Assembly: GCA_965203905.1 (NCBI GenBank)
Contig: CBDBDQ010000005.1
Span: 6,400,001 to 6,464,000, forward strand
Length of the DNA stretch: 64,000 nt
Source of the DNA: Spirochaetia bacterium
Lineage (GTDB): Bacteria; Spirochaetota; Spirochaetia; SZUA-6; Bin103
Direction of reading: 5' to 3'
Shown here: one piece after another, positions 42,455 through 57,539 of the stretch
Numbering within the stretch: position 1 is the first letter of the stretch
Layout: each line of letters begins with the position of its first letter
Notes under the pieces: generated by a model
Seen by the model: the letters and a program-made list of their open reading frames with translations, nothing else
What the model was told of the DNA's origin: nothing
Databases searched by the model: none
Program-made: the position numbers and the translations under genes

Positions 42455-43745
42455 GCGCTCCGTTCAGAAAGATCGAAAAGTGCAGATGGTCCTCGCTACT
42501 GTACCCGGTGTTCCCCATCTCGCCTACCTGCTGCCCCTGCCGGATGCGATCGCCGACCGTCACCAGTGCCTTGTCCAGGTGGGCGTACAACGTCTGGAAG
42601 CCTTCGGCATGACGCAGAATGAGGTAGCGGCCGTAGTTGCCGTTGTACCCCGCCTTTGCCACGGTGCCGCTCATCGCCGCGACCACGGAAGTTCCGCGCT
42701 GGTTGGCGATGTCGATGCCGTTGTGGAACTTGCGCAAGCCGGTAAAGGGGTCGTTGCGATAGCCGTACCCGGATGTTATGGGTCCGCGGGCGGGCCTGAC
42801 GAACAGTTGGCCGAGCACGCGGTTGCGGGCGTTCTCACTGAGCCCCACGCCCGGTATCAACAGGCTCTGTCCGGGAGTGATCGGCGAGCTCTCCACTTCG
42901 TTGATGTCGAGCAGAGCTGCCAGGCTCACCCCGTGACGCATCGCAATGCGGCTCGGGTTGTCGCCACGCCGCACCACGTAGCGGATTCCCGACCGGTTCG
43001 GAATGATCAGTTCCCGTCCCGGCTTCAGATCACGCTCACGCTTGATGTCGTTGAAACTGATAATCGTGTCCAGAGTGATGCCGAACCGGTCCGCCAGTGC
43101 GGCCAGAGTGTCCCCGGCGCCTACCTGGTAGCGCTCGTAGCGCACCCCCGGCTGGGCGCCTGGCGGAGTGTCCGCGCCGTCGGCGTCGGCAACCGACCTT
43201 GCGGTGGCAGCGGCGCCGATACTCCTCAGGTTGTCGAGCAGCGCCTTCTGCAGCCCGCCGTCGCCCGGTCGCAGCACTGCCCGCGTGCCGGCGCTGCCCA
43301 GGCCGGCCACCGCAGGAGCGACGAACTGGACCACCGCCGTGGCGCTGAAGGCGGCCGCTACCAGCAGCAGCCCCACCGCGACGGGAACGGGTCGGATCCA
43401 ACGCCGGGCCAGCAGGCCGCAACTCGCGCGCACACGGTTGAGGGTCTCGAACACTGCCGACCACGGGATGGCACGCCACAGGCGGTCCGTCTGGCCGCGG
43501 GACCGCGGCGGGTCGAGCAAGGCCGGCAGCCCGGAACGCAGCGGCGGCAGCGGAATCGCCGCCGTTGCACTCACGCTGAGATCCTCCATCCGGACGCCGG
43601 CGCGCTTATGACGGCTCGGCTGCTGCCTGATGCGGCTCGGTTGTTGGTTGTGCAGTGCCGAACGGGTGCCGTGCCGGTGGCGACGCCCGACTCTGCGCCG
43701 TCCGACGCGCTGGCCCCGCAAACCGGCGTAGGTGGCGTCACGCAT
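42426..43745 (-). CDS. LysM (x2) and M23 peptidoglycan endopeptidase
   Basis: YQVGAGDTL, YVVRRGD, HNGID, YAH, HLHF; start uncertain. Confidence 0.88.
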   Translation of the reverse strand: MRDATYAGLRGQRVGRRRVGRRHRHGTRSALHNQQPSRIRQQPSRHKRAGVRMEDLSVSATAAIPLPPLRSGLPALLDPPRSRGQTDRLWRAIPWSAVFETLNRVRASCGLLARRWIRPVPVAVGLLLVAAAFSATAVVQFVAPAVAGLGSAGTRAVLRPGDGGLQKALLDNLRSIGAAATARSVADADGADTPPGAQPGVRYERYQVGAGDTLAALADRFGITLDTIISFNDIKRERDLKPGRELIIPNRSGIRYVVRRGDNPSRIAMRHGVSLAALLDINEVESSPITPGQSLLIPGVGLSENARNRVLGQLFVRPARGPITSGYGYRNDPFTGLRKFHNGIDIANQRGTSVVAAMSGTVAKAGYNGNYGRYLILRHAEGFQTLYAHLDKALVTVGDRIRQGQQVGEMGNTGYSSEDHLHFSIFLNGAHVDPSEHLQ

Positions 43746-43754
43746 TCATTCTGC

Positions 43755-43782
43755 ATATCGACAACTCGTGCGCCGGTCATTA
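43755..43782 (-). promoter_or_regulatory. Putative sigma28 (FliA) promoter upstream of the M23 peptidases
   Basis: TAAT-16 nt-GTCGATAT compared with consensus TAAA-N15/16-GCCGATAT; the -35 overlaps an upstream stop codon. Confidence 0.4.
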
Positions 43783-44250
43783 CGTCCGAGTGGCTGGCTT
43801 GGTCGCCGTGCCGGGATCGGGCCGGTGCGGCACCAGACCGCGGTCGGCCGCCAGGTTGAGGATCAGCTCCACCTCGCCCGGGCTGGTAGCGAGGCGGTCA
43901 GCGATCACGGCGCTGGAGAATCCGAGGCCCCGTAGCCGCATCACCTGAGCCTCCCGCTCCCCGGCGCCACCGCAAAGGGCAGGCGCCGCCGCATGGCGCT
44001 GTTCCGGAACACTCCGCGACGCCCGTCGATCGGCCTCGCGCAGCGATTCGTCCAGACGCCGGATTCGATCTTCCAGCAGGGTGACGTTACGCTCCGCGGT
44101 GGCGTTCATCTCGGCTGTCAATTCGGCCACCCGAGAGCACAGCGCAGGCGCTTGGTCGAACCCGCGAAGTCTACGATCGAGATATCGTCGCAGCACCAGA
44201 AACAACACCGCAAGCCCGACAAGCTGCACCGCAACGAGGGCTAAGACCAC
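43780..44250 (-). CDS. Hypothetical protein: N-terminal TM helix, coiled coil, C-terminal HTH-like segment
   Basis: 'EMNATAERNVTLLEDRI', 'GFSSAVIADRLATSPGEVELIL'. Confidence 0.65.
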   Translation of the reverse strand: MVLALVAVQLVGLAVLFLVLRRYLDRRLRGFDQAPALCSRVAELTAEMNATAERNVTLLEDRIRRLDESLREADRRASRSVPEQRHAAAPALCGGAGEREAQVMRLRGLGFSSAVIADRLATSPGEVELILNLAADRGLVPHRPDPGTATKPATRT

Positions 44251-44260
44251 GCGCTAGCGC

Positions 44261-45073
44261 TCAAGTGATGCCACGTTTGAGGTTGGTCAGCTTGGCTCGC
44301 AGCCGGATGATCGCCTTGGTGTGAAGCTGCGACACGCGGGACTCGGTGACCTCCAGCACCTCGCCAATCTCGCGCAGTGTCAGCTCCTCGTAGTAATACA
44401 GCACGAGCACCCGTTGTTCCTTTTCCGGAAGCTCCTTGAGGGCCTCCAACATGACCCGCTTGATCTCATCCTTCTCTACGATGGTGTCGGGATTCAAGCT
44501 CGCCGGAGACTCCACGCTCTCCGCGATCGAGATGCGATCACTGTCATCGCCGCTGTGCCACAAGTCATTCAACGACATCACCGCGGTGCTGCTGATCTTC
44601 AGCAGCAACTGCTGAAATTCCTTCAGCGGCAGATTCATCTCGCGGGCCAGCTCGGCATCGGTCGCAGCGCGTCCCAGAGTAGCCTCCAGCTGGCGGACGG
44701 TATCCTCCACTTCGCGGGCTTTCTGGCGAACCGAGCGGGGCACCCAGTCATTGCTGCGCAGTTCGTCGAAAATCGCCCCGCGAATACGGGTCACGGCGTA
44801 GGTCTTGAACTTGACGTGCTTGGTGGGGTCGAACTTCTCGATGGCGTCGAACAGTCCGAACACGCCATATCCGACCAGGTCATCGAACTCCACGCTGCCG
44901 GGCATGCCCACCGCTACCTTTCCGGCCACGTACTTGACCAGCGGGGCATACTGTCGCACGAAGTAGTCACGGATTGCTATATCTTTATTAGCCCTATAAT
45001 TGTTCCACATTTCCTGTTCTTCGTCCTGGCTCAGCGGAGCGGTCGTCCTGCGCTCTTGGATACTAGTCGACAT
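44261..45073 (-). CDS. fliA: RNA polymerase sigma factor FliA/WhiG (sigma28)
   Basis: YAPLVKYVA, FKTYAVTRIRGAIFDELRSNDWVPRS, LTLREIGEVLEVTESRVSQLH. Confidence 0.95.
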   Translation of the reverse strand: MSTSIQERRTTAPLSQDEEQEMWNNYRANKDIAIRDYFVRQYAPLVKYVAGKVAVGMPGSVEFDDLVGYGVFGLFDAIEKFDPTKHVKFKTYAVTRIRGAIFDELRSNDWVPRSVRQKAREVEDTVRQLEATLGRAATDAELAREMNLPLKEFQQLLLKISSTAVMSLNDLWHSGDDSDRISIAESVESPASLNPDTIVEKDEIKRVMLEALKELPEKEQRVLVLYYYEELTLREIGEVLEVTESRVSQLHTKAIIRLRAKLTNLKRGIT

Positions 45074-45254
45074 GGCGCACTTCTACCTGCCTCGCAGCGG
45101 CGTCAACCAGCGGCGTCCAGCCGTGGCAAAGCGACCACCGAACCGAGGGCCGAGGATATGCCCCTGCTCCGAAGCGCCTCCGGACCATAACGAATTGTGA
45201 CACATGGCAGTGAACATGATGTTGCAACACTTGGTGCCCAACCTTACCGCAAAC

Positions 45255-45284
45255 AGGGTAGATGACATTTCCCCGCAAGGTCAA
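45255..45284 (-). promoter_or_regulatory. Putative sigma70 promoter of fliA
   Basis: TTGACC-18 nt-TACCCT in the flhF-fliA gap. Confidence 0.45.
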
Positions 45285-45328
45285 CATCCTGGCCCTCCTT
45301 GGCTGCAAAATTCTGAGCGAAATTGGCG

Positions 45329-46597
45329 TCATGCGGTCACCCGAGAGGCTTCCTCGGAACGCCACGAGGAAGCGGCCACCGAATTCTGTGTGGCTCCGGT
45401 ACTGGCGCCGAATTGCTCCTCCAGCAACCTGCGATCGAGACGAAACCCATCCAGGCTCAGGAGCAAACGCAGGGCCGATGCCGGCGCGATGTCCTGCGGT
45501 ACCACTTGCCCATCGCAACAGTAGGAAAGCGGTTTCCGGACGGCTCCGAGGACCGACAGCAGATTTCCAATGGTGGCCGTCTCGTCGAGCTTGGTAACGA
45601 TTACACCATCGTACGCAAACGGCTCGAATTGACGCATGATCTCCTCCAGGTCGGCGTACTTCGTGGTCGCGCTTACCACCAGCTGAGTGGTGCCGTGGCG
45701 GCCCACGGCGTCGAGCAACGAACGTATCTCTGCCAAGTGCGTATAGTTGCCTGGACTGCGCCCCACGGTGTCAACGAAAATCACCTCGGCGTCCTGCCCC
45801 AGCGCGATGGCCTTCTTCAGCTCGTCGGCAGTTTCCGCCGCCGTAACCGGGATTCGCATGATCTCGCCGTAGGTCTCGATCTGCTGGCGTGCGCCGATGC
45901 GGTAGTTGTCGATGGTCACGATGCGCACCCGGCAATCCGGCGACTCGGCGCTGCCGCCGATCGCGTGCAGTGCCGCCAGCTTGGCGATGGTCGTCGTCTT
46001 GCCCACGCCGGTGGGTCCAACCACGGTGCAGATGCGCGGTCCGGCGGCAGCGCCGACAGCCTCCGCCAGCGGGGCGGCCAGCCGCACCTCGCGGCCGATC
46101 TGGCACGCCACGTACTGATGCACCGCGGGCAGATCATCCAGTTTCGACAACGGGAACTCCGCCCGCACCTGCTCGATCAGCCGCCGCCGCACGTGCGCGG
46201 CGAAGTCGTTGCGCAGCAGCAACGCGTCGAGAGCGTCCAGTTGCGGATGCCCGGTCTGGCGGGGGGCGATCGCGGCTCCTTCGGGGAGCGACTCATCCAG
46301 ACGGGAGCGCAGTGCGGCGACCTCGTCCGCCAGCCGTTGCAGCCCGGTGCCGGACGCCGCACGATGCAGGATCTTGCGCTTTTCGCCGTCCAGGTCGGTC
46401 ACTTCGGGAGTTCCGTGCTCCGGCGTCGACGGTTCCACGAAACCGGTGATCTCCACACCGTCGCGGGCGAACAGCCCCAGCACACCACCCATCCGTACCG
46501 GACGATGGGAGTGAATACGGGCCTCGGGTCCATACAACCGCTTCATGGTCGCCAGGGCTTCGCGGGGTGTCGCACCCTGAATCGTGAAGTACTCCAT
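45329..46597 (-). CDS. flhF: SRP-type GTPase FlhF
   Basis: MEYFTIQG...[43 protein letters not shown]. Confidence 0.93.
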   Translation of the reverse strand: MEYFTIQGATPREALATMKRLYGPEARIHSHRPVRMGGVLGLFARDGVEITGFVEPSTPEHGTPEVTDLDGEKRKILHRAASGTGLQRLADEVAALRSRLDESLPEGAAIAPRQTGHPQLDALDALLLRNDFAAHVRRRLIEQVRAEFPLSKLDDLPAVHQYVACQIGREVRLAAPLAEAVGAAAGPRICTVVGPTGVGKTTTIAKLAALHAIGGSAESPDCRVRIVTIDNYRIGARQQIETYGEIMRIPVTAAETADELKKAIALGQDAEVIFVDTVGRSPGNYTHLAEIRSLLDAVGRHGTTQLVVSATTKYADLEEIMRQFEPFAYDGVIVTKLDETATIGNLLSVLGAVRKPLSYCCDGQVVPQDIAPASALRLLLSLDGFRLDRRLLEEQFGASTGATQNSVAASSWRSEEASRVTA

Positions 46598-46605
46598 CGG
46601 CAACC

Positions 46606-48591
46606 TCAGCGGCCGTCTCCCAGCCGCACCTCGGCAACCGACTGCAAGGCGACCTCAGGCGCCACCTCGGTAGTTGCCAGACACACCAGATGGGGGAGCT
46701 CCCGGCGGGTGGTTGCGCGTACCCGGACGCGGGCCTCGGAGGAACTCAGTACCGCGGGCCGGACTCCCTGTCGCGAGGCCCGCGCGAGGGTCCCGGACAG
46801 CGCCTCGATCCAGCGCCGCCGCGCCCCCGCTTCCATGCCGTGCGCCGCGTCAGCGCCGGCCAGAAGCTGCCGTTCGCACTCCGGTGCGAGGGTGATCACG
46901 CGCAGCACTCCGTCGCTGCCGGCATGCTGCAGGCTGATCTGGCGGGCCAGGGTGCGCCGTACCTGTTGCACCAGGAAGGCTGGGTCGCGGTTTGCGGACG
47001 CCCAATCTGCCAGCGTCTCCAGAATCGCCGGCAAGTCACGGATCGCTACCTGCTCCGCCAGCAGTCCCTGCAGCACGCGCCGGATTTCGCCGATCGACAA
47101 CACAGCGGTCACTTCTTCCACGGTAGTGGGATAATCCGCGCGCAGGCGGTCCAGCAGCGACCGCACCTGGTCGCGTCCCAACAGCTCCGCGGCGTGTCCA
47201 CGCAACAGCGCGCCGAGCCGGGCAACCAGAGCGTCGTTACTTCCGATCCGCCCGCGGCCCCGGCCCGCCTCGATGCCACGGATCTTCAGCAGATACTCCG
47301 ACGGCGCCAACTGCAGGTTGTCGCAAACCCGAACGTGCGGCACCGGGACGCCCCACTCCTGAGCCATCTGCGCGCGCAGGCGGGCGATGCGATCGAGCAA
47401 GTCGCCACCTGACTGGCCCTCGGCCATCGGCACCAGGGCGAGGCCCAGCTCCAGGCGCAGCGGCTCCGGAGGCGCCCCCGCCGCGGCGCCGGCGCCGTCG
47501 GCGCGCGCGGCGTACGCCGTGGCGGCCGCGCCCGCCACGGCGTACGGTTCGCCGGCGCCGGAATCCGCCTCACCTCCGGCGGCAGCCTGGGTCGCGCGCT
47601 CACCGGGTCGCGCCCGAGCCACGGCGTAGCCCAGCGCCGCGACTGCCGCCGCCAGCGGCAGCAACAGCAGCGGCGGGAACCCCGGCAGCAGCGCCAACAC
47701 CGCCAGGAACGCTCCGGTGATGTAGAAGGGGCGATCGTAGAACGAGAACTGGCGGGCCAGGTCGCGGCCGAACGAAACGCCGGAGATCGCTCGTGTGACG
47801 ACGATGCCGGTAGCGGTTGAGATCAGCAGCGCCGGAAGCTGGGTCACCAGACCGTCGCCGATGGTGAGGGTGGCATAGGTCTGCGCCGCCGCGGCCAGGG
47901 ACTCGCCATGTACGCTCACCCCCATGATCAGGCCGCCCGCGAGATTGACCAGGGTGATGATGATGGCGACGCGGACGCTGCCCGAGACGAACTTGGAAGC
48001 ACCATCCATGGCGCCGTAGAAGTTGCTCTGCCGCTGCAGCTCCTGCTTGCGCTGCTGAGCCTGAACCTCGGTGAGCAGGCCGGCGTGATACTCCGCGTCG
48101 ATCGCCATCTGCCGGCCCGGCAGGGCATCCAGGGTGAATCGGGCCGCTACCTCCGCCACCCGCGTCGAGCCCTTGGTAATGACGACGAACTGTACCGCGA
48201 TGATTATGGTGAAGATGACGAGACCGATCAGGTAGCCGGCGACGCCGGACGCCCCTACCACGAAACTGCCGAATGCACGCACCACGCGCCCGTCGAAGGC
48301 CGCTCCCTGCGCCAGGATGAGGCGGGTCGAGGACACGTTGAGGGCCAGGCCGAAGACCGTGGCCAGCAGCAGCAGGGTGGGAAACACCGTGAACTCCAGG
48401 GTGTCGCGGGCGTACAGCACGATGAGAATCACCAGCAGGCTGAGGCAGATGTTGAGCAGCATGAACAGATCGAGCAGCACCCCCGGCAAGGGGATGAGCA
48501 GCATCAGGATCGCCACGCACACGAACACCGCCACCAGAACGTCGCCGCGCTGGCGCCACCGCTCCCCGACACCGTGCCTCACGTCGGCCAT
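46606..48591 (-). CDS. flhA: Export apparatus protein FlhA with an internally deleted cytoplasmic domain
   Basis: FPTLLL, LNVSSTRLIL, RVAEVAARFTLDALPG, FYGAMDGASKF, IGDGLV, IRDL..ILE; RBS GGAGG. Confidence 0.93.
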   Translation of the reverse strand: MADVRHGVGERWRQRGDVLVAVFVCVAILMLLIPLPGVLLDLFMLLNICLSLLVILIVLYARDTLEFTVFPTLLLLATVFGLALNVSSTRLILAQGAAFDGRVVRAFGSFVVGASGVAGYLIGLVIFTIIIAVQFVVITKGSTRVAEVAARFTLDALPGRQMAIDAEYHAGLLTEVQAQQRKQELQRQSNFYGAMDGASKFVSGSVRVAIIITLVNLAGGLIMGVSVHGESLAAAAQTYATLTIGDGLVTQLPALLISTATGIVVTRAISGVSFGRDLARQFSFYDRPFYITGAFLAVLALLPGFPPLLLLPLAAAVAALGYAVARARPGERATQAAAGGEADSGAGEPYAVAGAAATAYAARADGAGAAAGAPPEPLRLELGLALVPMAEGQSGGDLLDRIARLRAQMAQEWGVPVPHVRVCDNLQLAPSEYLLKIRGIEAGRGRGRIGSNDALVARLGALLRGHAAELLGRDQVRSLLDRLRADYPTTVEEVTAVLSIGEIRRVLQGLLAEQVAIRDLPAILETLADWASANRDPAFLVQQVRRTLARQISLQHAGSDGVLRVITLAPECERQLLAGADAAHGMEAGARRRWIEALSGTLARASRQGVRPAVLSSSEARVRVRATTRRELPHLVCLATTEVAPEVALQSVAEVRLGDGR

Positions 48592-49727
48592 GCAGCCTCC
48601 GTGCCACCGGTGTGGCGCACTGCCGCCAGAAGCCTGGCCGCCGGCTGGTAGAACGGTTCCGGAATCGGATCCCCGACGGCGACCTCCCGCCACACCGCTT
48701 CCGCCAGCGTTCGGTCCTCCACCACGGCTACGCCGTTGGCCGCGGCCAGCGCTCCGATCCGCTGCGCGGCGGTCGCCATCCCCTTGGCTACCACCACCGG
48801 TGCGCGCATGGTCGTGCCGTCCCAGCGCAGCGCCACCGCGCGTCGTTCACCGTGGGCAATCACCACGTCGGCCGCCGCCACCTGAGCGCCCATGGTGCGG
48901 CGCAGCAGCTCGCGCATGCGGCCCCGCAGCCGATCCCGGACCGCCGGGTCGCCCTCCTGGCGGCGGCGTTCGTCGCGTACCTCCCGCGGTGACATCCGCA
49001 ACCGCAGCCGATGCCGATAGCGCCGGAACAGGTAGTCGACCAGGGCCAGCGCCAGCAGCGCGACCGCCGTCTGGGCGCCGCAACGCAGGGCCGCGCGTGC
49101 CAGCACGGCGCCGGCCACGGCCAGCGACGTGCCGGCCAGCGTCTCCAGCACGGTGCCGATGGTGGACACGGCAGCGGCGCCGACGACCACTACCTTGAGC
49201 AGTTCCTTGACCAGGCTGAAGACCGCCTCTGCCGAGAGCGCGCGCTGCCGCAAGCGCCTCCAGCGCGGCACGATACGGCTCAGGTCGGGCACCACGGGGC
49301 GCACGGCGACTCGCCGTCCACCCTGCACCAGGTTTCCCAACAAGGCGCCCGCCACGCCGACCGCCGCCACCGGCAGCGACAGCCGGGCGACATAGCTGAA
49401 CGCCGCCGGCGCAATCGCGGCCGGCTCCGGAACCTGCGCGGTTCCGATTGCGGCCAGGAAGTGGCGTACCATCGCGCCGGTGCTGGCGATCAGCGAGGAG
49501 CCGAGCAGCGCCAGGGCGGTGACTCCGCAGAGCAGCACGAGCGCTGCCGTCAGCTCGGGAGAGTGGAACCCCTGTCCGGTCTCCCGCGCCGTGCGCATGC
49601 GCAGTGCGCTGGGTGGCTCGGTGCGGATCTCGTCAGCCTCCGCGAACCATTGCAGGTGCACATGGGCATAGCCCGCGGCGAACGCGCCCGCAACGGCCGT
49701 TGCGGCGGTGGAGCAGCCGGCGCTCAC
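48579..49727 (-). CDS. flhB: Export apparatus protein FlhB lacking the NPTH motif
   Basis: HLQWFA..RTEPPS, LRMSPREVRDERRRQEGDP, ADVVIAHGERRAVAL, APVVVAKG; GTG overlaps the fliR stop. Confidence 0.9.
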   Translation of the reverse strand: MSAGCSTAATAVAGAFAAGYAHVHLQWFAEADEIRTEPPSALRMRTARETGQGFHSPELTAALVLLCGVTALALLGSSLIASTGAMVRHFLAAIGTAQVPEPAAIAPAAFSYVARLSLPVAAVGVAGALLGNLVQGGRRVAVRPVVPDLSRIVPRWRRLRQRALSAEAVFSLVKELLKVVVVGAAAVSTIGTVLETLAGTSLAVAGAVLARAALRCGAQTAVALLALALVDYLFRRYRHRLRLRMSPREVRDERRRQEGDPAVRDRLRGRMRELLRRTMGAQVAAADVVIAHGERRAVALRWDGTTMRAPVVVAKGMATAAQRIGALAAANGVAVVEDRTLAEAVWREVAVGDPIPEPFYQPAARLLAAVRHTGGTEAAWPT

Positions 49728-50581
49728 GGTGCCCCCACCTGCGGCACCGAGCCGCCCGGCGGCAGTGTCCGCGCTGCGGCGCCCAACTCCGCGAGGAGCC
49801 GGCGCAGTTCCACGAAGGCGCCATCGATCACCGCCGCCGCCGCATCGAGCAGCAGCGGCAGGGTGAGCAGCAGGAGCACCAGTCCTGCACCCAGCGAGAC
49901 GGGCAGCCCCAGCATCAGCAGATTCATCTGCGGCGCTGCCTTGGCCAGCAGGGCGAGCGCGATCGATACCAGCAGCAAGGCGCCGAAGATCGGCAGCGCG
50001 ATGGTCAGGGCGGTGCTGAACAGCCGGGCCAGACTGCCGGCTGCGCGCTGCAGCAGCAGCCCTGCGCCGCGCAGGGCACCGGCCTCCAGGCTGATCACCA
50101 GATCGGCCGCGCGCAAGGCTTGAAACGAGCCCGCGACGCCCACCAGCAGCAGCCGGTGCAGCCCGCCGACCGAGAGGAACACCAGTACCGCCAGCAGTGA
50201 GAACACCTGGCTCAACAGGGGTGACCGATGGCCTGACAGCGGATCGAACAGCTCCGCGACGCCGAAGCCGACCGACAGCGATATGAACTGCCCGGCCAGG
50301 CGCAGCGCGGCGAAAGCCAGATACACCAGAAAGCCGAGCAGGGCACCGAGCAGAGCCTCGCCCAGCAGCAACAACCCGTACTGCATGCCCGATGGCGGCA
50401 GCGGATAGCCCGCGGCCGCTACGCCGGGCAGCGCGATCAGAGCGATGAACACGGCCAGACCGATCTTTCCCACCTGCGGAATCGCGCGCGACGAGAGCAG
50501 CGGAGCTACCTGGATCATGGCCAGCACCCGCGCCAGCACCAGGAGTCCCACCCCCAGGTCGTCGAGCAGGCCGCGGATCAC
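49724..50581 (-). CDS. fliR: Export gate protein FliR
   Basis: AGQFIS..GFG..FDP, KAAPQMN. Confidence 0.92.
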   Translation of the reverse strand: MIRGLLDDLGVGLLVLARVLAMIQVAPLLSSRAIPQVGKIGLAVFIALIALPGVAAAGYPLPPSGMQYGLLLLGEALLGALLGFLVYLAFAALRLAGQFISLSVGFGVAELFDPLSGHRSPLLSQVFSLLAVLVFLSVGGLHRLLLVGVAGSFQALRAADLVISLEAGALRGAGLLLQRAAGSLARLFSTALTIALPIFGALLLVSIALALLAKAAPQMNLLMLGLPVSLGAGLVLLLLTLPLLLDAAAAVIDGAFVELRRLLAELGAAARTLPPGGSVPQVGAP

Positions 50582-50624
50582 GCCACCCCACCGTTGGTGC
50601 CTCTGGCAATAGCAGCCGCGGCCG

Positions 50625-50894
50625 TCATCGCGCCATCCCCGGTATGCTCTCGAACAGGCGCCGGGTGAAGTCCAGCATGGAGCCGCCGAGCCAGGGGCCC
50701 AGCAGCAGTGCGGTTCCGAGGACGGCGAAGATCTTCGGCACGAACGTGAGCGTCTGCTCCTGGATCGACGTGGTGGCCTGCAGAACCGAGATCACGAGTC
50801 CCACCAGCACACTGATCAGCAGCATCGGACCCGCCATCAACAGTAGTTGCAGCACGGCGTCCCGTGCCAGGCCGGCTACCGCGCCCAGCGTCAC
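50625..50894 (-). CDS. fliQ: Export gate protein FliQ
   Basis: VGLVISVLQATTSIQEQTLTFVPKI; GTG start with RBS GGAGG. Confidence 0.93.
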   Translation of the reverse strand: MTLGAVAGLARDAVLQLLLMAGPMLLISVLVGLVISVLQATTSIQEQTLTFVPKIFAVLGTALLLGPWLGGSMLDFTRRLFESIPGMAR

Positions 50895-50961
50895 GAACGG
50901 CCTCCGCGCAGCCGCCGGCGGCCACCGTGCACTGCCCCGGGTGCCGTTTTGCCGTGGCACC

Positions 50962-51750
50962 TCACCGGAAGCTCCCTATCACCTGCATGGTGAGCAGGTC
51001 CCAGCCGTCCACCAGGACGAACAGGATCAGTTTGAACGGCAGCGAGATGAGCACCGGGGGCAACACGATGATGCCCATCGAGATCAGGGTCGTCGCCACC
51101 ACCATGTCGATGATGACGAACGGGATGAAGATGAGAACGCCGATCTTGAACGCCACCGTCAGCTCATGGAGGATGAACGCAGGGATGAGAATGTAGGTCG
51201 GCACGTCGGCCCGGGTGTTCGGCTTGGGCAGCTCACGCATGCGCATGAACAGACGGATGTTGTCGGCGTCGTCGCCAAGCTGGCGGAACATGAATTCGCG
51301 CACCGGCACTTCCGCGCGCTGCAGCAGCTGGGTGCTGCTCAGCTCGCCGCGGGTAAACGGCTGCAGCGCGTCGCGATTGATCGCCTCGAACGTCGGCCAC
51401 ATGATGAACGCGGTAAGGAACAGGGCGACGCCCATCAGCACCTGGTTGGGCGGCATCTCCTGCAGCGACAACGCTCGCTTGACGAAGTGGAACACGATCG
51501 CCAGGCGCAGAAACGAGGTGGTCAGGATCATGATCGAGGGTGCCAGGGAAAGCACGGCCAGGAGCACCAGGAGCTGCAGGGACAGCGCCAGTTCCTGATT
51601 CGACTGCGCGTCGCGCAGAGTCAGATCCAGAAACGGAATGCCGGGCGCGGAGACGGCCTCCGGCGCCACCGACTGAGCCGCGGCCGGCAGCGGTCCGCAC
51701 AGCGCTGCGGCCAGCAGCGCCGTGGCGATCAACAGGCTAGTCCGCGGCAC
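50962..51750 (-). CDS. fliP: Export gate protein FliP
   Basis: Signal peptide, TSFLR, PPNQVL, PAFILHEL, SLPFKLILFVLVDGW. Confidence 0.95.
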   Translation of the reverse strand: MPRTSLLIATALLAAALCGPLPAAAQSVAPEAVSAPGIPFLDLTLRDAQSNQELALSLQLLVLLAVLSLAPSIMILTTSFLRLAIVFHFVKRALSLQEMPPNQVLMGVALFLTAFIMWPTFEAINRDALQPFTRGELSSTQLLQRAEVPVREFMFRQLGDDADNIRLFMRMRELPKPNTRADVPTYILIPAFILHELTVAFKIGVLIFIPFVIIDMVVATTLISMGIIVLPPVLISLPFKLILFVLVDGWDLLTMQVIGSFR

Positions 51751-52465
51751 CGACTTCCCCCGGTTGCCGCCGGCGGCGGAGGCGCTGCAGCCGCTCCTGC
51801 TGGCGCTGCAGGAAGTCGGCGGCAGCCGCGGTTGCGGCCGCCGCGCCCGATGCCGCGCCCGGTGCCGCGCCGGGTGCGGGACCGATGTCGGCCAGCAGAT
51901 CGGCAAAGCGGCCTCCCGCTGCGCGCGGCTGCGCGTGATTCGGTGTCAGCGCTTGGATGCTGTCCTGATCGGTTATCTGCGCGATGAGGTTGAGGGTCTG
52001 GTCCGTAGCACCGATCAGGTACACGCCGCCTCCCACCTGCACCAGGTGCAGGTGGCGGCTGCCACCGAGCGACCGGGAACCGAGCAGGGCGATGCGGTCA
52101 GCGTTGCCGACGCTGGCCCGGGAGCTGCGCCTGATGAGCCGGAACAGCAGGTAGATGGCGCCGAGCACCGCCGCGAGCACCGCGACCATACGCACGAAGT
52201 CACCGGTGGAGACCGCCGCCGGCACGGCCGGCACCGCACGGTTCTCCGCCGCCCGCGACAGTGGCGTCAGGTCCGCCGCCGTGCCGGACGCATCGGCTTC
52301 CTGGGCAGACGCGGCACCCACCACGCCCAGCCACGCCACGGCCAACAGCAGCGCCGTCGCAACAGGTAGGTATGTCCGCCGTGCACGCGTACGACGCGCG
52401 CCACGGTGTGCTGCAGTGTACAGGTTGTTCCCCTCCCAGGAACGTAGCCGAACCACGCTCATCAC
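51737..52465 (-). CDS. fliO: FliO/FliZ family protein
   Basis: TM helix then 'LGSRSLGGSRHLHLVQVGGGVYLIGA...LIAQI'; located between fliN and fliP; start uncertain. Confidence 0.8.
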   Translation of the reverse strand: MMSVVRLRSWEGNNLYTAAHRGARRTRARRTYLPVATALLLAVAWLGVVGAASAQEADASGTAADLTPLSRAAENRAVPAVPAAVSTGDFVRMVAVLAAVLGAIYLLFRLIRRSSRASVGNADRIALLGSRSLGGSRHLHLVQVGGGVYLIGATDQTLNLIAQITDQDSIQALTPNHAQPRAAGGRFADLLADIGPAPGAAPGAASGAAAATAAAADFLQRQQERLQRLRRRRQPGEVGAAD

Positions 52466-52626
52466 CGTCTTGGCCCGTTGCGGTCCAATGGGCCGCCGGA
52501 CCGTCCGAACTTCCTGGCGCCGCGAACCGCCGCCTGCGGCGCCGCTTTTCGCTCAGCCTCTCCTTCCGCCGGGAGCACCGCCTGGCACCCAGGCTCTCCC
52601 CGCGCTGCGCTGCCCGACGCGTCGCA

Positions 52627-53004
52627 TCACGTTCCCCCGTCCTCGCGGAGTGCCATTGCAGGCTCCGCGCGGCCGACGATCTCCGTCACGCGCACGCCGA
52701 AGTTGTTGTCGATCACCACCACCTCGCCACGTGCTATCGGCTTGTGGTTCACCAGGATTGCGACCGGCTCGCCGGCGAGCTGGTCGAGTTCGATCACCGC
52801 CCCCGCGTTGATGTCGAGCACCTCGCGGATGGTTCGCGTGGTGCTGCCGAGCTCGACCGTCATGCGCAGATCCACGTCCATCAGCAGGCCGATGTCCGCC
52901 TGCTCCGAGGTTGCTGCCGAAGCCTGTTCGAAGTCGGGAAGCTGCACCGGCCGCACCTCGGTCGCGGCGGCGCCGGCGTCATGCAGGGCCCGGTCGGCGC
53001 TCAC
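52627..53004 (-). CDS. fliN: C-ring protein FliN (SpoA only, no FliY phosphatase domain)
   Basis: LLMDVDLRMTVELG...LDQLAGEPV...GEVVVIDNNFGVRVTEI; GTGA overlap with fliM. Confidence 0.9.
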   Translation of the reverse strand: MSADRALHDAGAAATEVRPVQLPDFEQASAATSEQADIGLLMDVDLRMTVELGSTTRTIREVLDINAGAVIELDQLAGEPVAILVNHKPIARGEVVVIDNNFGVRVTEIVGRAEPAMALREDGGT

Positions 53005-54002
53005 GATACCGCCTCCGCCGGTTTCTCCAGCGGCTTCACCACCTGTACCGCGAAGCGCTTGCCGACCACTCCGGGAAGGCAGCGGAACTTGGGTTTGCCC
53101 GCCACCTTCAGGTATAGCTCGTCGCCCGGGCCACGGTCGTCGAGACGAATGAGGTCTCCCTTCTTCAGCCCCAGGACACGCGGCAACGGCAGCAGCGCGC
53201 TGCCGATCTCGGCGCTGATGGAGACCGGCACGCCCTGCAGCGCCTGGCGCACCGTCGCGTGACGCCCGGCCGCTCTCCGCGGCTCGCTTCCGAACGGGTG
53301 GTGAGGCGCGCCGCGGTCGCCAATCGACTTCAGGGTGAGGCAGGAGACGGCGAGCTGCAGCTCCCCCTCCACGCCGCCGATCCGGGTGCCGAACGCGACC
53401 CGCACCAGCATTCCTGCGGGAATCGACGCCGCCGCCGTCCGGTCGCGGCGCCGGCAGTACTCCAGCCGCGGCCGAATCGGGACCAGTGGCTGCCACGCCG
53501 ACTGCAGATCAGGAAGCAGGCTGGAGATACGGTTCTGCAACACCGACGCTTCGATCTCGCTCAGTTCGCGAGACGGCACGGTGGGCACGCCCTGGCCTCC
53601 GAGCAGGCGGTCGATCAGGGAATAGGCGAAGCGATGGTCGAGCGCAAGCACGGCGACGCCCGCCAGCGGGTCCAGCGCCACTGCGGCCAGCACCACGGCG
53701 CGCGCCAGCGCAGTGCGGAACTCCTCACCGCTGATCTGTGCCACGGAGTGAGGGACGATCTCGACCCGGGTGCGGGTCTGATTGGCGAGGGACTCGGCGG
53801 CCAGTGCGGCAAACGTCTCGTGCACGGTGGCGAGGGCGCCGACCTGGCGCTCGGAGAGACGGCCGGCGAACCCGAAGTCGTATGCGTCTGGCGTCATGCC
53901 ACTGACCGGCGACCCGGTACTTGCCGATAGCACGGCACTGCTGCTGGAGGCGGCGCAATCCAGCAGCGAGACATGACCGCGACGCGGGCCTGCATCAGCC
54001 AC
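53001..54002 (-). CDS. fliM: C-ring protein FliM with a degenerate N-terminus
   Basis: YDF...HETFA, IDRLLGGQG, RELSEIE, C-terminal SpoA (LKKGDLIRL); RBS GGGAGG. Confidence 0.88.
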   Translation of the reverse strand: MADAGPRRGHVSLLDCAASSSSAVLSASTGSPVSGMTPDAYDFGFAGRLSERQVGALATVHETFAALAAESLANQTRTRVEIVPHSVAQISGEEFRTALARAVVLAAVALDPLAGVAVLALDHRFAYSLIDRLLGGQGVPTVPSRELSEIEASVLQNRISSLLPDLQSAWQPLVPIRPRLEYCRRRDRTAAASIPAGMLVRVAFGTRIGGVEGELQLAVSCLTLKSIGDRGAPHHPFGSEPRRAAGRHATVRQALQGVPVSISAEIGSALLPLPRVLGLKKGDLIRLDDRGPGDELYLKVAGKPKFRCLPGVVGKRFAVQVVKPLEKPAEAVS

Positions 54003-54119
54003 GCGCTCCCTCCCATGTGACGACCGGGAATTCGCACCGCTCCAAGGGTGGGGAGCATGCGCGCCCGGTTCTCACCCCCGTCGCCCGCCGCGTGGGACGG
54101 GACGTCGGGGAAGACTCGC

Positions 54120-54148
54120 AGGTTACGGCAAAGCGAAAAAAGGTGCAA
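54120..54148 (-). promoter_or_regulatory. Putative sigma70 promoter of the fliM-flhF block
   Basis: TTGCAC-17 nt-TAACCT with a T-rich spacer. Confidence 0.6.
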
Positions 54149-54221
54149 CCGCTACGCCGCAACGGCGCACGGCGGCACCGGGAAGCCCACGGCGCGTGCC
54201 GACCGTAGCGTGGGCCGTCAG

Positions 54222-55898
54222 TTACTTCTCGACCAGCCACGAGCGCAGCGTTCGCGCAGCATCCGCAGGCCGCTCGCGTGCCAGCCTGGCCGCGTTCTGT
54301 TGCATCTGCGCCTTGCTTCGCAAATTGGGGGGTGAAGCCGCCCAGCCGCCGCGGGCGGCGGCGCTCAACCGTGCGGGATGCATGCCGGAGCGCTGCGCGG
54401 CGTGCGACCGCCGGTGCCGCGCCCACAACCAGGAACCGAACGCCGTCAACAACAGCGCCGCCGCCCCGGCAACCGCCAGCGGCAGCATCCGCAACAGCTC
54501 CGCCTCGCGCCGCAGCACGGCGTCCTCCTGCTGGAACTGCCGCATGCGGTCGAACTGCAGGTGCTCGACGGTAACCGAGTCGCCACGCTGCGGGTCCCAG
54601 CCGATGGCGTCCTGGATCAGCAGCGTAGCCTTGCGCAAATCGTCCTCGGAAACCGGCGTGTACTCGCGCTGCACGCTGCCGTCGGCATGCAGCTGGATCT
54701 GGCCGTCGGGCCGGAACGTGGTCCGCCACACGCCATCGAGTGCGACACTTACGGTGATCCGGTTGATCGCCCATGGGCTCTTCTCCGTAACCGTGTTGCG
54801 GCGGTTGACCACCTCGTTGCGGGACACCGAGCTGCGCTGGTACGCGCCCGCGCCGGGACCACTGCCGGCACCGGCCGCCACCGGCGCAGACTCCTGAGCG
54901 GTCACCGGCCGCGTCTCCTCCTCGCGTTGTTCCGAAATCGTAATGGAGGGGACCTTGACCGACTCGTCGCTCTCCGTGTGCGGATTGTCGGCCCGCATGG
55001 CGATTGGAAAGTGCTCTTCGGTCTGGGTGGTTTCGGCCGACAGATCGAGATCGATGTCGAGCCGTACGATCTGCACTCGATCGAGCGTGAAGATCTTGCC
55101 CAGAGCGGTAAGGATCTCTCGCTTGTAGCGTTGCTCCAGGTCGAACTTGGTATTGAGCTGGCGCTCCACCAGAGCCGCGCGGCCCTGTCCGGCAAGGTCT
55201 CCGACGTCATTCACCTGGACCCCGCGGGGATCCAGGATCACGATGTTTTCCGCCCGCAGGCCGGCGACGGCAAACTGCACCAGGCGCTGGATGCCGGCGA
55301 CCTTCTTACGATCCTCGAGGATATCGGAGCCCAGTCGCGGGGTGATGATGATCGACGCCGTAGTCGGGTTCTGATCCTCCGCGAACAGCTCGGTCTCGGG
55401 CACCACCAGGGTGACGTTGGCGGCCACGACGTCGTCCAGGGCGGTAATGTGCTGCTCCAGGTTGCGGGTCAGGGCGCGCTGCAGGTTGACGTTGCGCTCG
55501 AAGTCCGTCATCGAGAAACGGTCCACCTCGAAGACGGAAAAGGGATCGGTATGCGGCGGCATCAGGTCCTCACGAATCAGGATTGCGCGCAGCCGCCGCG
55601 CGTTCTCCTGATCGGCCACCAGGATGCGGTTGTCGGAGGCGATCTGGTATTCGGCGCTCTCCTGATCAAGCCGTGCCGCGATCCGCAGGAGGTCCTGCTG
55701 ATCGCCGATTGGGGCACCGATAAGGGCAACCATGTGCCTGCCGGCGGCGATGGGCCCATCGCCGCGAGAGGCGCCGAGCAGTGTCAATGCGATGATCGAA
55801 GTGACGACCAGCGCGCTCAGCGACAGTTTCTGAAGCTGACTCCAACGACCCCAGAGGCCGGCCGCCCGCTGCCTCAGGCGTGCCAGGAGTTCGTTCAT
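54222..55898 (-). CDS. fliF: MS-ring protein FliF
   Basis: 'MTDFERNVNLQRAL', 'VQFAVAGL', 'ITVSVALDG', 'AIGWDPQRGDSVTV', C-terminal 'ARERPADAARTLRSWL'; RBS GGGAGG. Confidence 0.9.
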   Translation of the reverse strand: MNELLARLRQRAAGLWGRWSQLQKLSLSALVVTSIIALTLLGASRGDGPIAAGRHMVALIGAPIGDQQDLLRIAARLDQESAEYQIASDNRILVADQENARRLRAILIREDLMPPHTDPFSVFEVDRFSMTDFERNVNLQRALTRNLEQHITALDDVVAANVTLVVPETELFAEDQNPTTASIIITPRLGSDILEDRKKVAGIQRLVQFAVAGLRAENIVILDPRGVQVNDVGDLAGQGRAALVERQLNTKFDLEQRYKREILTALGKIFTLDRVQIVRLDIDLDLSAETTQTEEHFPIAMRADNPHTESDESVKVPSITISEQREEETRPVTAQESAPVAAGAGSGPGAGAYQRSSVSRNEVVNRRNTVTEKSPWAINRITVSVALDGVWRTTFRPDGQIQLHADGSVQREYTPVSEDDLRKATLLIQDAIGWDPQRGDSVTVEHLQFDRMRQFQQEDAVLRREAELLRMLPLAVAGAAALLLTAFGSWLWARHRRSHAAQRSGMHPARLSAAARGGWAASPPNLRSKAQMQQNAARLARERPADAARTLRSWLVEK

Positions 55899-55980
55899 GT
55901 TCCCCCTCCCAAGCTGCACGACGGCGCCGCGAGACCCGGCGGGTAACCGGCTCCCGTTGCGCCTGATTCGCGCATCGTCT

Positions 55981-56030
55981 GTTATGTCCGTGGAGGTCGC
56001 TCTTTGTCAACACGCAACGGAAAAAAATAA
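55981..56030 (-). promoter_or_regulatory. Putative sigma70 promoter with an UP-like T-tract upstream of fliF
   Basis: TTATTTTTTT...TTGACA-18 nt-CATAAC. Confidence 0.55.
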
Positions 56031-56144
56031 TTGGACCCTGTGTCGCATTTGCCGAAATCCCGGGCCCTTGTCGTGATCTCCATGCGGGCGCGGTGGACGA
56101 CCTCCTGCCGCCACCGCGACGGCGCCCCGGTACGACCGCGGATG

Positions 56145-57539
56145 CTACAGGATGTAGCGGGTAAGGTCGCGGTCTTCGATGATCTTGGTGAGCCGCTCGT
56201 TCACGTAGTCGGGAGTGATGGTGACGCTCTGTCCCTGCAAATCCGGTGCGCTGAAGGAGAGCTCCTCCAACAGCAGCTCCATGATCGTGTGCAGGCGTCG
56301 GGCGCCGATATTCTCGGTGCTGCGATTCACCTCGGAGGCCAGCTCCGAGATCCGGTCAACTGCAGCCTCGGTGAACTTCAGCGTTACCTCCTCCGTGGCC
56401 AACAGCGCCGTGTACTGGGTGATCAATGCATTCCGCGGCTGCGTCAGGATGCGCTTGAAGTCGTCGCTTCCCAGGGCCGCGAGCTCCACTCGGATCGGGA
56501 AGCGCCCCTGCAGCTCGGGGATCAGATCCGCGGGCTTGCTCATGTGAAAGGCACCCGCGGCGATGAACAGGATGTGGGCCGTGTCGACGGTGCCCCACTT
56601 GGTGGTAACGGTGCTCCCCTCCACGATTGGCAGGATGTCGCGCTGCACCCCCTCGCGCGACACGTCGGCGCCGCCACGGCTGTCCTTCGCCGCTACCTTG
56701 TCGATCTCGTCGAGGAATATGATGCCCATCTGTTCGACCCGCTCGATGGCCAGTTCCGAAACCCGGTCCTTGTCCACCAGGCGATCGATCTCGTCCGCCA
56801 TCAACACCTGCCGCGCGCGCCGCACCGGCACCTTCTTCTTCTTCTTGCGACCGCCGAACAGGTTGCCGAGGTTGCCCAGGTTGATATCCATCTCCTCGAA
56901 GCTCTGTCCCGAGAAGATCTCGATCGCCGGACCGCTGCTGTCGGACACGTTCACCTCCACCAGCTTGTCATCGAGCTGTCCCGCGCGCAGCCGCTCGCGA
57001 AACTTGGTCACGGTCCCGGTCTCCGGCGCGATCGCCGCCGATTCGGCTCGCTTCACCACGGACGCCTCGGGCGCCGGTGGCGCCGGCGGCGGCTTCGGTT
57101 TTGGCTGGCGCAGGCCCGGCAGCAGCAACTCGAGCAGCTGTTCTTCGACGCGGGTCTCGGCCTCCTCCTGCACCCCGGCCTGCAACTCCCCCTTGACCAT
57201 GGAGATGGCCACCGAGGTCAGGTCCCGCACCATGGACTCGACGTCACGACCCACATAGCCCACCTCGGTGTACTTGGTGGCCTCCACCTTGACGAAGGGA
57301 GCCCGGCACAGTTTCGCCAAGCGGCGCGCGATCTCGGTCTTGCCCACCCCCGTGGGGCCGATCAGAATGATGTTCTTCGGCGCTACCTCGTCGCGCAGAT
57401 CGGGCGGCAGCTTGCGCCGCCGCAGGCGATTGCGCAGCGCAATCGCGACCGCTTTCTTGGCCTTCTCCTGCCCGACGATGTAGCGATCCAGTTCCTGCAC
57501 GATCTCCTTGGGACTGAGCTGGTCCAGATCGACGCTCAT
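56145..57539 (-). CDS. hslU: ATP-dependent protease ATPase subunit HslU
   Basis: [45 protein letters not shown]. Confidence 0.97.

Follow-up and report, generated by a model that had tools for sequence, protein, structure and literature searches.

The 64,000-nucleotide window analyzed here (positions 6,400,001 to 6,464,000 of contig CBDBDQ010000005.1, hereafter C5, in the Spirochaetia bacterium assembly GCA_965203905.1) carries a compact set of flagellar genes, fliF to fliA, on its minus strand. A sequence-only reading of this DNA had described the set as a minimal, remodelled, flagellum-derived export system. Our best reading is that the locus is a lineage-wide, selected, non-motile remnant of a spirochaete flgB-type operon, neither a working nor a freshly broken flagellum. 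The genome (7.99 Mb in five contigs, 98.71% complete, 7.9% estimated contamination) holds the locus on its main contig of 7.79 Mb (66% G+C). Gene identities were assigned with Pfam and NCBIfam profiles. Genome-wide absence was assessed with family models and with tblastn, using the proteins of a flagellated genome of the same order (G031), which also served as the reference for synteny. Profile searches covered 41 genomes: the source genome, 10 congeners, 13 members of a sister genus, and 17 genomes from seven other families of the order. Positions given without a contig are those of the window.

Flagellar genes at the locus

The minus strand reads dprA-xerC-hslV-hslU, then fliF-fliM-fliN-fliO-fliP-fliQ-fliR-flhB-flhA-flhF-fliA, followed by a DUF6115-like open reading frame (ORF) and two LysM-M23 peptidase genes. 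The profiles identified every gene named by the sequence-only reading, in the order that it gave. The upstream anchor is hslU (56145-57539, minus strand, as are all features of this section; Pfam AAA_2 and AAA), which lies outside the system; its product is 66% identical to HslU of G031, where the gene precedes flgB. The MS-ring gene fliF (54222-55919) scored 125.6 bits with Pfam YscJ_FliF, 91 bits with YscJ_FliF_C, and 265.9 bits with TIGR00206 (cut-off 129.75). Its likely true start is a conserved ATG at 55898, and the protein is 43% identical to G031 FliF. The gene for the switch (C-ring) protein, fliM (53001-54002), matched Pfam FliM with 121.3 bits (280.2 for the G031 protein) as well as FliMN_C, and stayed under the TIGR01397 cut-off (182.7 versus 219.6). 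A short form of fliN (52627-53004) encodes the C-terminal SpoA/FliN domain alone (FliMN_C, 87.6 bits on 124 amino acids (aa)). Together with a FliG encoded elsewhere, all four members of the rotor/switch set (FliF, FliG, FliM, FliN) are present in the genome.

The membrane set of the export gate is complete, with all of its Pfam matches above their cut-offs. It comprises fliO (51737-52465; FliO, 48.4 bits), the gate subunit fliP (50962-51732; FliP, 240 bits; pore loop at 51055-51075), fliQ (50625-50960; Bac_export_3, 96.6 bits; likely start GTG at 50894, where the tblastn match begins), fliR (49724-50581; Bac_export_1, 192.3 bits), flhB (48579-49727; Bac_export_2, 267.3 bits; NPTH position at 48840-48857), and flhA (46606-48693; likely start ATG at 48591), whose FHIPEP match comes in two parts, at profile positions 2-402 and 455-656. 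FlhB scored under the TIGR00328 cut-off (243.8 versus 349.25). Next comes flhF (45329-46603), for the SRP-type GTPase that places flagella, with 116.9 bits on Pfam SRP54 and FlhF as its top NCBIfam match, under the cut-off. The sigma-28/WhiG-type factor FliA (44261-45073) contains Pfam sigma-70 regions 2, 3, and 4 and scored 414.3 bits with NF004935 (cut-off 343) and 294 with TIGR02479 (cut-off 189.6). A small coiled-coil/membrane ORF (43780-44250) is weakly DUF6115-like (19 bits, under the cut-off); it fell inside the interval assigned to the system by the sequence-only reading, where it went unnamed. A 185-aa ORF located 3' of fliA in G031, itself a weak DUF6115 match, matches it at 32%.

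The genes are tightly packed, with 4-nt overlaps at fliM/fliN and fliR/flhB and with flhA and flhF 2 nt apart. Gaps of about 220-255 bp had been described at three junctions, and this was borne out: hslU-fliF measures 225 nt to the longest ORF and 246 nt to the conserved ATG at 55898, fliF-fliM 219 nt, and flhF-fliA 255 nt. A fourth gap, fliN-fliO, measures 161 nt. The hslU-fliF gap contains a promoter-like element (55979-56011) with TTGACA, a spacing of 17-18 nt, and an ATAA-type -10 box. In an alignment of this gap GTTGACA was invariant in the 6/6 congener loci compared, and a GGGAGG-type ribosome site 5' of fliF (55900-55910) was conserved in 6/6 loci; the element is a putative promoter. 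A hairpin resembling a terminator, T-run included, occupies positions 54144-54161 of the fliF-fliM gap; it may be due to chance, as the scan gave fewer such hairpins than shuffled sequence. From this hairpin, fliF and the fliM-to-flhF genes may form separate transcription units.

Missing parts and distribution among relatives

The operon behind hslU in G031 reads flgB-flgC-fliE-fliF-fliG-fliH-fliI-fliJ-(an unnamed 203-aa ORF)-fliK-flgD-flgE-flbD-motA-motB-fliL-fliM-fliN-fliO-fliP-fliQ-fliR-flhB-flhA-flhF-flhG-fliA, with motB named from position and tblastn only. Relative to this syntenic operon, the window lacks exactly the three blocks that the sequence-only reading had listed as missing: flgB-flgC-fliE before fliF, fliG to fliL between fliF and fliM, and flhG after flhF. 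The further claim that no rod, hook, motor, or ATPase genes are present was upheld across the whole genome. Profile searches of the source genome found no Flg_bb_rod, Flg_bbr_C, FliE, or Flagellin_N, and no CheW or MCPsignal for chemotaxis, with control genomes positive. MotB_plug gave 0 matches and the G031 MotA and MotB proteins gave no tblastn match at E<=1e-3; the MotA_ExbB family itself was not searched. With tblastn, 13 G031 queries found no match (flgB, flgC, fliE, fliH, fliJ, the unnamed 203-aa ORF, fliK, flgD, flgE, flbD, motA, motB, and fliL), and the same search recovered the retained genes at 35-64% identity. The G031 FlhG query met only ParA/MinD-like matches of 26-27% elsewhere in the genome, and no flhG follows flhF.

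A FliI-type ATPase was likewise not found: all six fliI_yscN matches in the genome were below the cut-off (best 230.9 versus 379.5 bits). Five of the six were scanned with Pfam and proved to be four ATP-synthase alpha/beta-type catalytic subunits (two adjacent pairs) and one Rho; the C-terminal domain of type III secretion system (T3SS) ATPases was found in none of these five. The G031 FliI query matched only ATP-synthase-type subunits, at about 30%. One of the two pairs, V/A-type by our reading, is located at C5:6213464-6216666, about 9 kb from the orphan fliG described below, and the other at C5:6107017-6110612; no link of the former pair to flagellar genes was found.

Remnants of the deleted genes were sought by tblastn of G031 proteins against the hslU-fliF, fliF-fliM, flhF-fliA, and fliN-fliO gaps. 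The best match had an E value of about 0.02 and none lay at the expected place, so the deletions are either clean or old. Assembly breaks at the junctions are unlikely. Seven other assemblies whose locus extends across the junctions have the same layout, which agrees wherever it is readable in ten genus loci (source included; three partial), and positions 53812-54674 are bridged, with one difference, by a contig from a run of another study. The same losses recur in the single-contig chromosomes of four congeners (G001, G007, G009, and G010).

FliG is not missing from the genome. An intact three-domain FliG is encoded at C5:6224405-6225586, 175 kb from the locus, between genes for an RRM protein and a DUF1223 protein, and scores 360 bits with TIGR00207 (cut-off 226.7). 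The gene is present in 10/10 congeners, with identical neighbours every time, and in 0/13 genomes of the sister genus. The "partial C ring" of the sequence-only reading thus has to be amended. The genus FliG proteins group with the operon-type FliG2 of flagellated relatives (100/100) and not with their second paralogue, on a long stem (0.37 + 0.42). In the C-terminal helix, 9/10 genus sequences are non-acidic at one of two adjacent acidic positions, which we take, from work on Escherichia coli, to contact the stator.

Among the 41 genomes, FlhA was detected in the source genome, 9/10 congeners, 3/13 sister-genus genomes, and 17/17 genomes of other families. In the 24 family genomes, FliP was found in the source genome, 8/10 congeners, and 3/13 of the sister genus. 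The rod domain and flagellin were each absent from the source genome, found in 1/10 congeners and 0/13 sister-genus genomes, and present in 17/17 genomes of other families. The sole congener with rod (2) and flagellin (3) matches, G002 (completeness 81%, 510 contigs), has no FlhA, FliP, or FliA match; it represents a flagellated branch that split off early, another kind of genome, or a mixed bin. FliA is carried by the source genome, 9/10 congeners, and 13/13 of the sister genus.

At this one locus the relatives form a graded series. It begins with the full operon in G031 and continues in this genus with 11 genes plus fliG at another site, then with about 8 genes in three sister-genus genomes (G011, G012, and G015), and ends with hslU next to fliA. 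The three sister-genus gate-holders retain only the gate and ring set, fliF, fliOPQR, flhB, and flhA, with FliF shortened. In a quick tree, the FlhA membrane domains of the reduced lineages of both genera formed one clade among the flagellated members of the order (Shimodaira-Hasegawa-like approximate likelihood ratio test, 93). This nesting indicates a single, vertical origin of the reduction.

Selection on the retained genes and loss of flagellar motifs

The ratios of nonsynonymous to synonymous substitution (dN/dS) were obtained pairwise between related genomes by the Nei-Gojobori method (NG86) and are not tree-based; dS within the genus ranged from 0.3 to 1.4. Within the genus, fliA gave 0.05-0.13, fliP 0.12-0.25, fliQ 0.14-0.38, flhF 0.17-0.28, fliR 0.21-0.34, fliF 0.22-0.31, and flhA 0.23-0.36, with 0.09-0.13 for hslU and 0.24-0.33 for xerC as comparison genes. 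Higher values were obtained for fliO (0.39-0.48), fliM (0.31-0.76), fliN (0.25-0.77), and flhB (0.27-0.73). Inclusion of the most divergent congener (L085) raised fliM to 0.86, flhB to 0.79, fliO to 0.68, fliR to 0.55, flhA to 0.45, and flhF to 0.43. The sister-genus gate-holders, which lack flhF, fliM, and fliN, gave 0.16-0.17 for fliA, 0.18-0.21 for fliP, 0.09-0.15 for fliQ, 0.23-0.34 for fliR, 0.31-0.35 for fliF, 0.32-0.40 for flhA, 0.36-0.41 for fliO, and 0.50-0.72 for flhB, next to 0.11-0.17 for hslU and 0.23-0.27 for xerC. Within FlhA, the membrane domain (0.12-0.24) and the cytoplasmic domain (0.24-0.43) differed, and the FlhB C-domain gave 0.30-0.43. The set is under purifying selection. 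Twelve genes that stay intact over such synonymous change, with low dN/dS, are not neutral relics. The sequence-only reading had argued against random decay, and the genus-wide conservation and ratios well under 1 (fliP, flhA, flhF, and fliF, 0.12-0.36) agree with it.

The retained proteins have been stripped of motifs that serve a flagellum. The LSQDEIDQLL-type N-terminal peptide of FliM, which presumably binds CheY-P, was present in 3/3 flagellated relatives and in 0/5 genus sequences. FliN is about 125 aa long, compared with 370 aa in G031, whose homologue has an added CheX-like domain. The NPTH autocleavage site of FlhB is present in the 2/2 flagellated relatives aligned and is replaced by unrelated residues in 7/7 readable genus sequences (six by alignment, the seventh by pattern). 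FlhA retains an intact membrane domain and lacks about 50 residues of its cytoplasmic domain, with the junction near 47215-47244. This loss was seen in every genus FlhA examined that has a cytoplasmic domain (4 aligned; split profile match in 8 genomes); FlhA of the sister genus retains the segment. The rest of the cytoplasmic domain is predicted to fold like FlhA-C: its model has a predicted local distance difference test score (pLDDT) mostly of 75-90 over residues ~400-650 and matches FlhA-C entries with a Foldseek probability of 1.00. Only this part of the model was used, as the membrane part was poor (mean pLDDT 64.7, 14-row alignment). The genus proteins still carry the conserved membrane motifs around the FHIPEP region of FlhA, the core of FliQ, and the plug region of FliR. 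The loss of flagellum-specific motifs that had been noted in the single sequence is therefore real and lineage-wide. The accompanying statement that all genes are full-length holds only in part, as FliN is short, FliM is without its N-terminal peptide, FlhA without about 50 residues, and FlhB without NPTH.

Function, rival explanations, and known systems

A specific function for this selected, non-motile remnant would be that of a simplified, ATPase-free export gate, driven by the proton-motive force and emptying into the periplasm. We give this proposal a probability of about 0.45. Its history would begin with a family ancestor that deleted from the operon the genes for rod and FliE, everything from fliH to fliL (for the ATPase complex, the hook, the stator, and FliL), and flhG. 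The filament and chemotaxis genes, which are sited elsewhere in spirochaete genomes, would have been lost as well, and fliG would have moved to another site. What remained would be an inner-membrane complex with a FliF ring, FliG/FliM/FliN beneath it, the FliOPQR-FlhB-FlhA gate inside it, and FlhF presumably placing the complex. In this genus, selection has retained FliF, FliG, FliM/N, and FlhF along with the cytoplasmic parts of both FlhA and FlhB, which suggests that the complex still assembles with a cytoplasmic face. With no FliE or rod on top, the gate would open into the periplasm. With neither the FlhB cleavage site nor the D2 docking pocket of FlhA, it would work slowly and on a single class of cargo, without sorting. 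Such a machine would no longer rotate, be steered, or sort early from late substrates, which fits the losses. Assembly, continued export, opening into the periplasm, and use of the proton-motive force are all four what we infer here. Precedent for export without the ATPase reportedly exists in work by Minamino and Namba and by Paul and colleagues in 2008 and by Erhardt and colleagues in 2014. The labels of one relative's record and of the sole RNA library with related sequence, both sponge-associated, hint at a host-associated life.

Several observations weigh against continued export. The pore loop of FliP reads G-I-I-V in 12/12 reduced genomes versus G-M-I-M in 3/3 flagellated relatives, a shared change and hence one event rather than twelve. 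Across about 2500 homologues, conservation of the first and last methionines of this loop stands at 99%, and in Salmonella fewer loop methionines mean less export (PMC8239009). Against solved FlhA structures, the segment lost from genus FlhA falls on residues 438-488 of chain 12dv_B (697 aa); in a 692-aa chain, matching starts again at residue 487. Ala-446, Phe-459, and Gln-477 belong to domain D2 of FlhA, which meets D1 at the dimple where substrates and chaperones dock (PMC9431611). The lost segment spans these positions and so maps to D2. Two congeners (L027 and L042) go further: a clean deletion has left them FlhA proteins of 493 and 523 aa with almost nothing of the cytoplasmic domain, and flhF follows within 4-7 nt. 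In two others a single gene of 285-291 aa joins a FliM domain to part of a FliN-type C-terminal domain, and no separate fliN is present (L019, 5256-6128; L043, 5358-6212); a deletion may have fused FliM and FliN naturally here. Loci L086 and L087 show the same match pattern. In the sister-genus gate-holders, FlhB ends at profile position 243 of 335, without a C-domain, and fliM, fliN, and flhF are missing from the locus and FliG from the genome. Ten of the 13 sister-genus genomes have no gate at all, and the two inspected (G013 and G018) read dprA-xerC-hslV-hslU, about 390 bp, fliA. Because the sister genus loses the gate stepwise to nothing, the gate is dispensable in close kin. Constraint on flhB, fliM, fliN, and fliO is weak, dN/dS between subclades reaching 0.73-0.77, and neither cargo nor a secretion signal or chaperone was identified. 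One RNA-library run (X1, a sponge metagenome; word share 0.06) yielded contigs 90-96% identical over fliF, fliM, fliP, flhA, and fliA-orfX, but contigs cannot show transcription and the library may hold DNA, and the evidence for expression is weak. The lost features are those on which canonical export depends. Of the repurposed non-motile secretion or conduit machine proposed earlier, the selected non-motile remnant therefore stands and secretion is an inference.

The complex might instead be kept for a job other than protein export, with selection seeing a membrane core that serves as a platform for tubes or vesicles, an ion-conducting complex, or a polar landmark. We consider this unlikely on the whole, although it is a substantial competitor. 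The membrane genes are the most constrained (fliP 0.12-0.25, fliQ 0.09-0.38, and the FlhA membrane domain at 0.12-0.24 versus 0.24-0.43 for the cytoplasmic domain), and the sister gate-holders keep the membrane core alone (short FliF, FliOPQR, FlhB without its C-domain, and FlhA), with fliP and fliQ at 0.09-0.21. FlhA has lost its cytoplasmic domain in two congeners, 12/12 reduced genomes are without the methionine loop that is linked to fast translocation, and the retained minimal set equals the "CORE" of PMC6456723, which lists other CORE-retaining taxa. A membrane-only role nevertheless leaves unexplained why the genus keeps the cytoplasmic domains of FlhA and FlhB together with FliG, FliM, and mostly FliN at dN/dS <0.5 within subclades. 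The link between CORE and nanotubes was, moreover, shown in a monoderm, and the match here is drawn from genes alone. A narrower form, in which FliPQR, FlhA, the membrane part of FlhB, and FliF have a function of their own, independent of both the flagellum and classical type III secretion, is in our view rather improbable; a platform for membrane tubes or vesicles and a gated ion or small-molecule pore are candidates for it.

Alternatively, the locus could be a relic on its way out, with low dN/dS produced by selection against harmful, half-broken pores, so that only clean deletion of whole blocks is tolerated. The graded series at a single locus, through to gate-less genomes, fits such a course, as does the loss of different peripheral pieces in different congeners, and leaky pore mutants of Salmonella are less fit (PMC8239009). 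Yet all 10 genus species with a readable locus keep the set, at a dS of about 0.9-1.0 between subclades. Genes that form no pore are constrained too (flhF 0.17-0.28, fliF 0.22-0.31), and the relocated fliG persists in 10/10 congeners. A conserved promoter-like element also lies upstream, and silencing would be an easy escape if the products were only a liability. On these grounds a departing relic appears improbable, without being far-fetched. That a flagellum is still built, from genes too diverged or unassembled to be seen or hidden by a binning or assembly artefact, is scarcely credible. The assembly is of metagenome type with 7.9% estimated contamination, and congener G002 gives rod and flagellin matches; that genome, however, at 81% completeness in 510 contigs and with no FlhA, FliP, or FliA matches, is a different kind of genome or a mixed bin. 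The locus sits in a 7.79-Mb contig of a 98.71%-complete genome, and its losses are repeated in four single-contig congener chromosomes. Family models and same-order queries both fail for the missing genes and easily find the retained ones, and neither the chemotaxis genes nor the FliM peptide that binds CheY has been kept.

Several known systems resemble the remnant in part. Buchnera aphidicola is a tiny-genome insect endosymbiont that has kept the rod and FliI and, in some strains, the hook. The likeness lies in a host-restricted, non-motile bacterium with basal-body and type III export genes and no filament (PMC8109811). In the spirochaete, the genome is of 8 Mb, the axial parts and the ATPase are gone, and sigma-28 is retained. 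Lysobacter enzymogenes OH11 is also non-motile and retains flagellar export-gate genes; its flhA and flhB as well as fliP, fliQ, and fliR are reported to be expressed and to export non-flagellar proteins (PMC7688988). OH11 has FliI, rod (flgC, flgG), hook (flgE), hook cap (flgD), and L/P rings and lacks mainly flagellin, whereas the spirochaete is without ATPase, rod, hook, and FliE. Unlike that of OH11, the spirochaete gate has lost the methionine loop, NPTH, and the FlhA D2 segment. Sphaerochaeta comprises spirochaetes without flagellar motility and chemotaxis and is reported to have none of these genes (PMC3372971); here, 12 flagellar genes, sigma-28, and a FlgM-like gene are kept.

The CORE complex (FliO, FliP, FliQ, and FliR with FlhB and FlhA) is a proposed nanotube platform and occurs without the rest of the organelle in Myxococci, Chloracidobacterium thermophilum, and Succinatimonas (Bhattacharya et al. 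2019, PMC6456723). The CORE-only taxa that section 12 of that article names include no spirochaete. The irreducible set of the sister genus equals CORE plus FliF, and the studied genus has FliF, FliG, FliM, FliN, and FlhF in addition. The parallel drawn by the sequence-only reading thus holds for the gene set and goes no further. The "Myxo" non-flagellar T3SS of Myxococcales, an export apparatus derived from the flagellum, has no motility parts or outer-membrane channel and is argued to be functional from its long conservation (Abby & Rocha 2012, PMC3459982). The same authors counted 61 replicons with partial loci, nearly all flagellar in origin, so partial sets as such are not new. The "Myxo" system belongs to the injectisome branch, whereas the spirochaete FlhA has its place within the order's own flagellar FlhA, so the reduction is independent and much younger. 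An injectisome is not indicated: FlhB and FliF score higher on flagellar than on Sct models and no SctN-type ATPase was found, although secretin and needle were not searched.

Partial flagellar sets are known in non-motile bacteria, most of them with rod, hook, or ATPase; the extent of loss, the remodelling of the gate, and the natural series set this locus apart. The combination had not been recognised in spirochaetes by the sequence-only reading, and no description of such a reduced set in spirochaetes was found in the open full-text literature (subscription papers and supplementary files lay beyond reach). Besides Sphaerochaeta, it represents a second, different kind of non-motile spirochaete. 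With a graded series at one syntenic locus, selection can be measured at each step, and the parts let go last are FliP, FliQ, and FliR most clearly, then FlhA and FliF. Supposedly essential features (the methionine gasket, the NPTH switch, FlhA D2 or all of FlhA-C, and the ATPase) have been lost while the genes stay constrained. This bears on how a secretion system emerges from, or survives without, a flagellum, and on whether, as has been claimed for nanotubes, the export core serves a second function. If selection does act on a membrane core, the two genera would be a natural "CORE-only" experiment, stripped stepwise to the needs of a hidden function.

FliA has to be set apart from the machine, to which the sequence-only reading had assigned it. 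It occurs in 23/24 genomes of the family, including 13/13 of the sister genus and 10 gate-less genomes. A FlgM-like gene at C5:1825621-1825944 on the plus strand (L049:1372-1698), between rsmI-like and NIF3-like genes, encodes a protein with 23.8 bits on Pfam FlgM (cut-off 25), with relatives in 39/41 genomes, including 13/13 of the sister genus. As both genes persist in gate-less genomes, their presence does not depend on the gate, and the regulon that they serve must by now be a different one. As a late substrate, FlgM needs the FlhB switch for its export, and that switch is missing here. Export of FlgM as the job of the gate was considered and ranked low, given the persistence of FliA and the FlgM-like gene in 10 gate-less genomes. 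Within the genus, a GGGTAGCC motif is common to the sequences upstream of the FlgM-like gene and could not be tied to sigma-28; a sigma-28-like promoter precedes the gene in the flagellated G030 and in the anomalous bin G002.

The genome was scanned for sigma-28 promoters with a consensus pattern, using a reversed pattern as a control. The strict consensus gave 8 matches versus 1 for the control, and each of the 8 is a copy of one site that an insertion sequence carries at its left end; looser patterns gave 3 and 22 matches. The insertion sequence is 1.3 kb long and is present in 8 copies (C5:345060-345086, ~466257, 1397151, 2335303, 2393403, 4132531, 5867444, and 6846424), none of them in the window, and the promoter match lies about 40 nt upstream of a 406-aa transposase-like ORF. 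Downstream of fliA in the window, the two LysM-M23 peptidase genes stand in tandem (41375-43745, minus strand). No such pair lies within 10 kb in two flagellated relatives, and the pair is syntenic across both genera, including the two inspected gate-less genomes.

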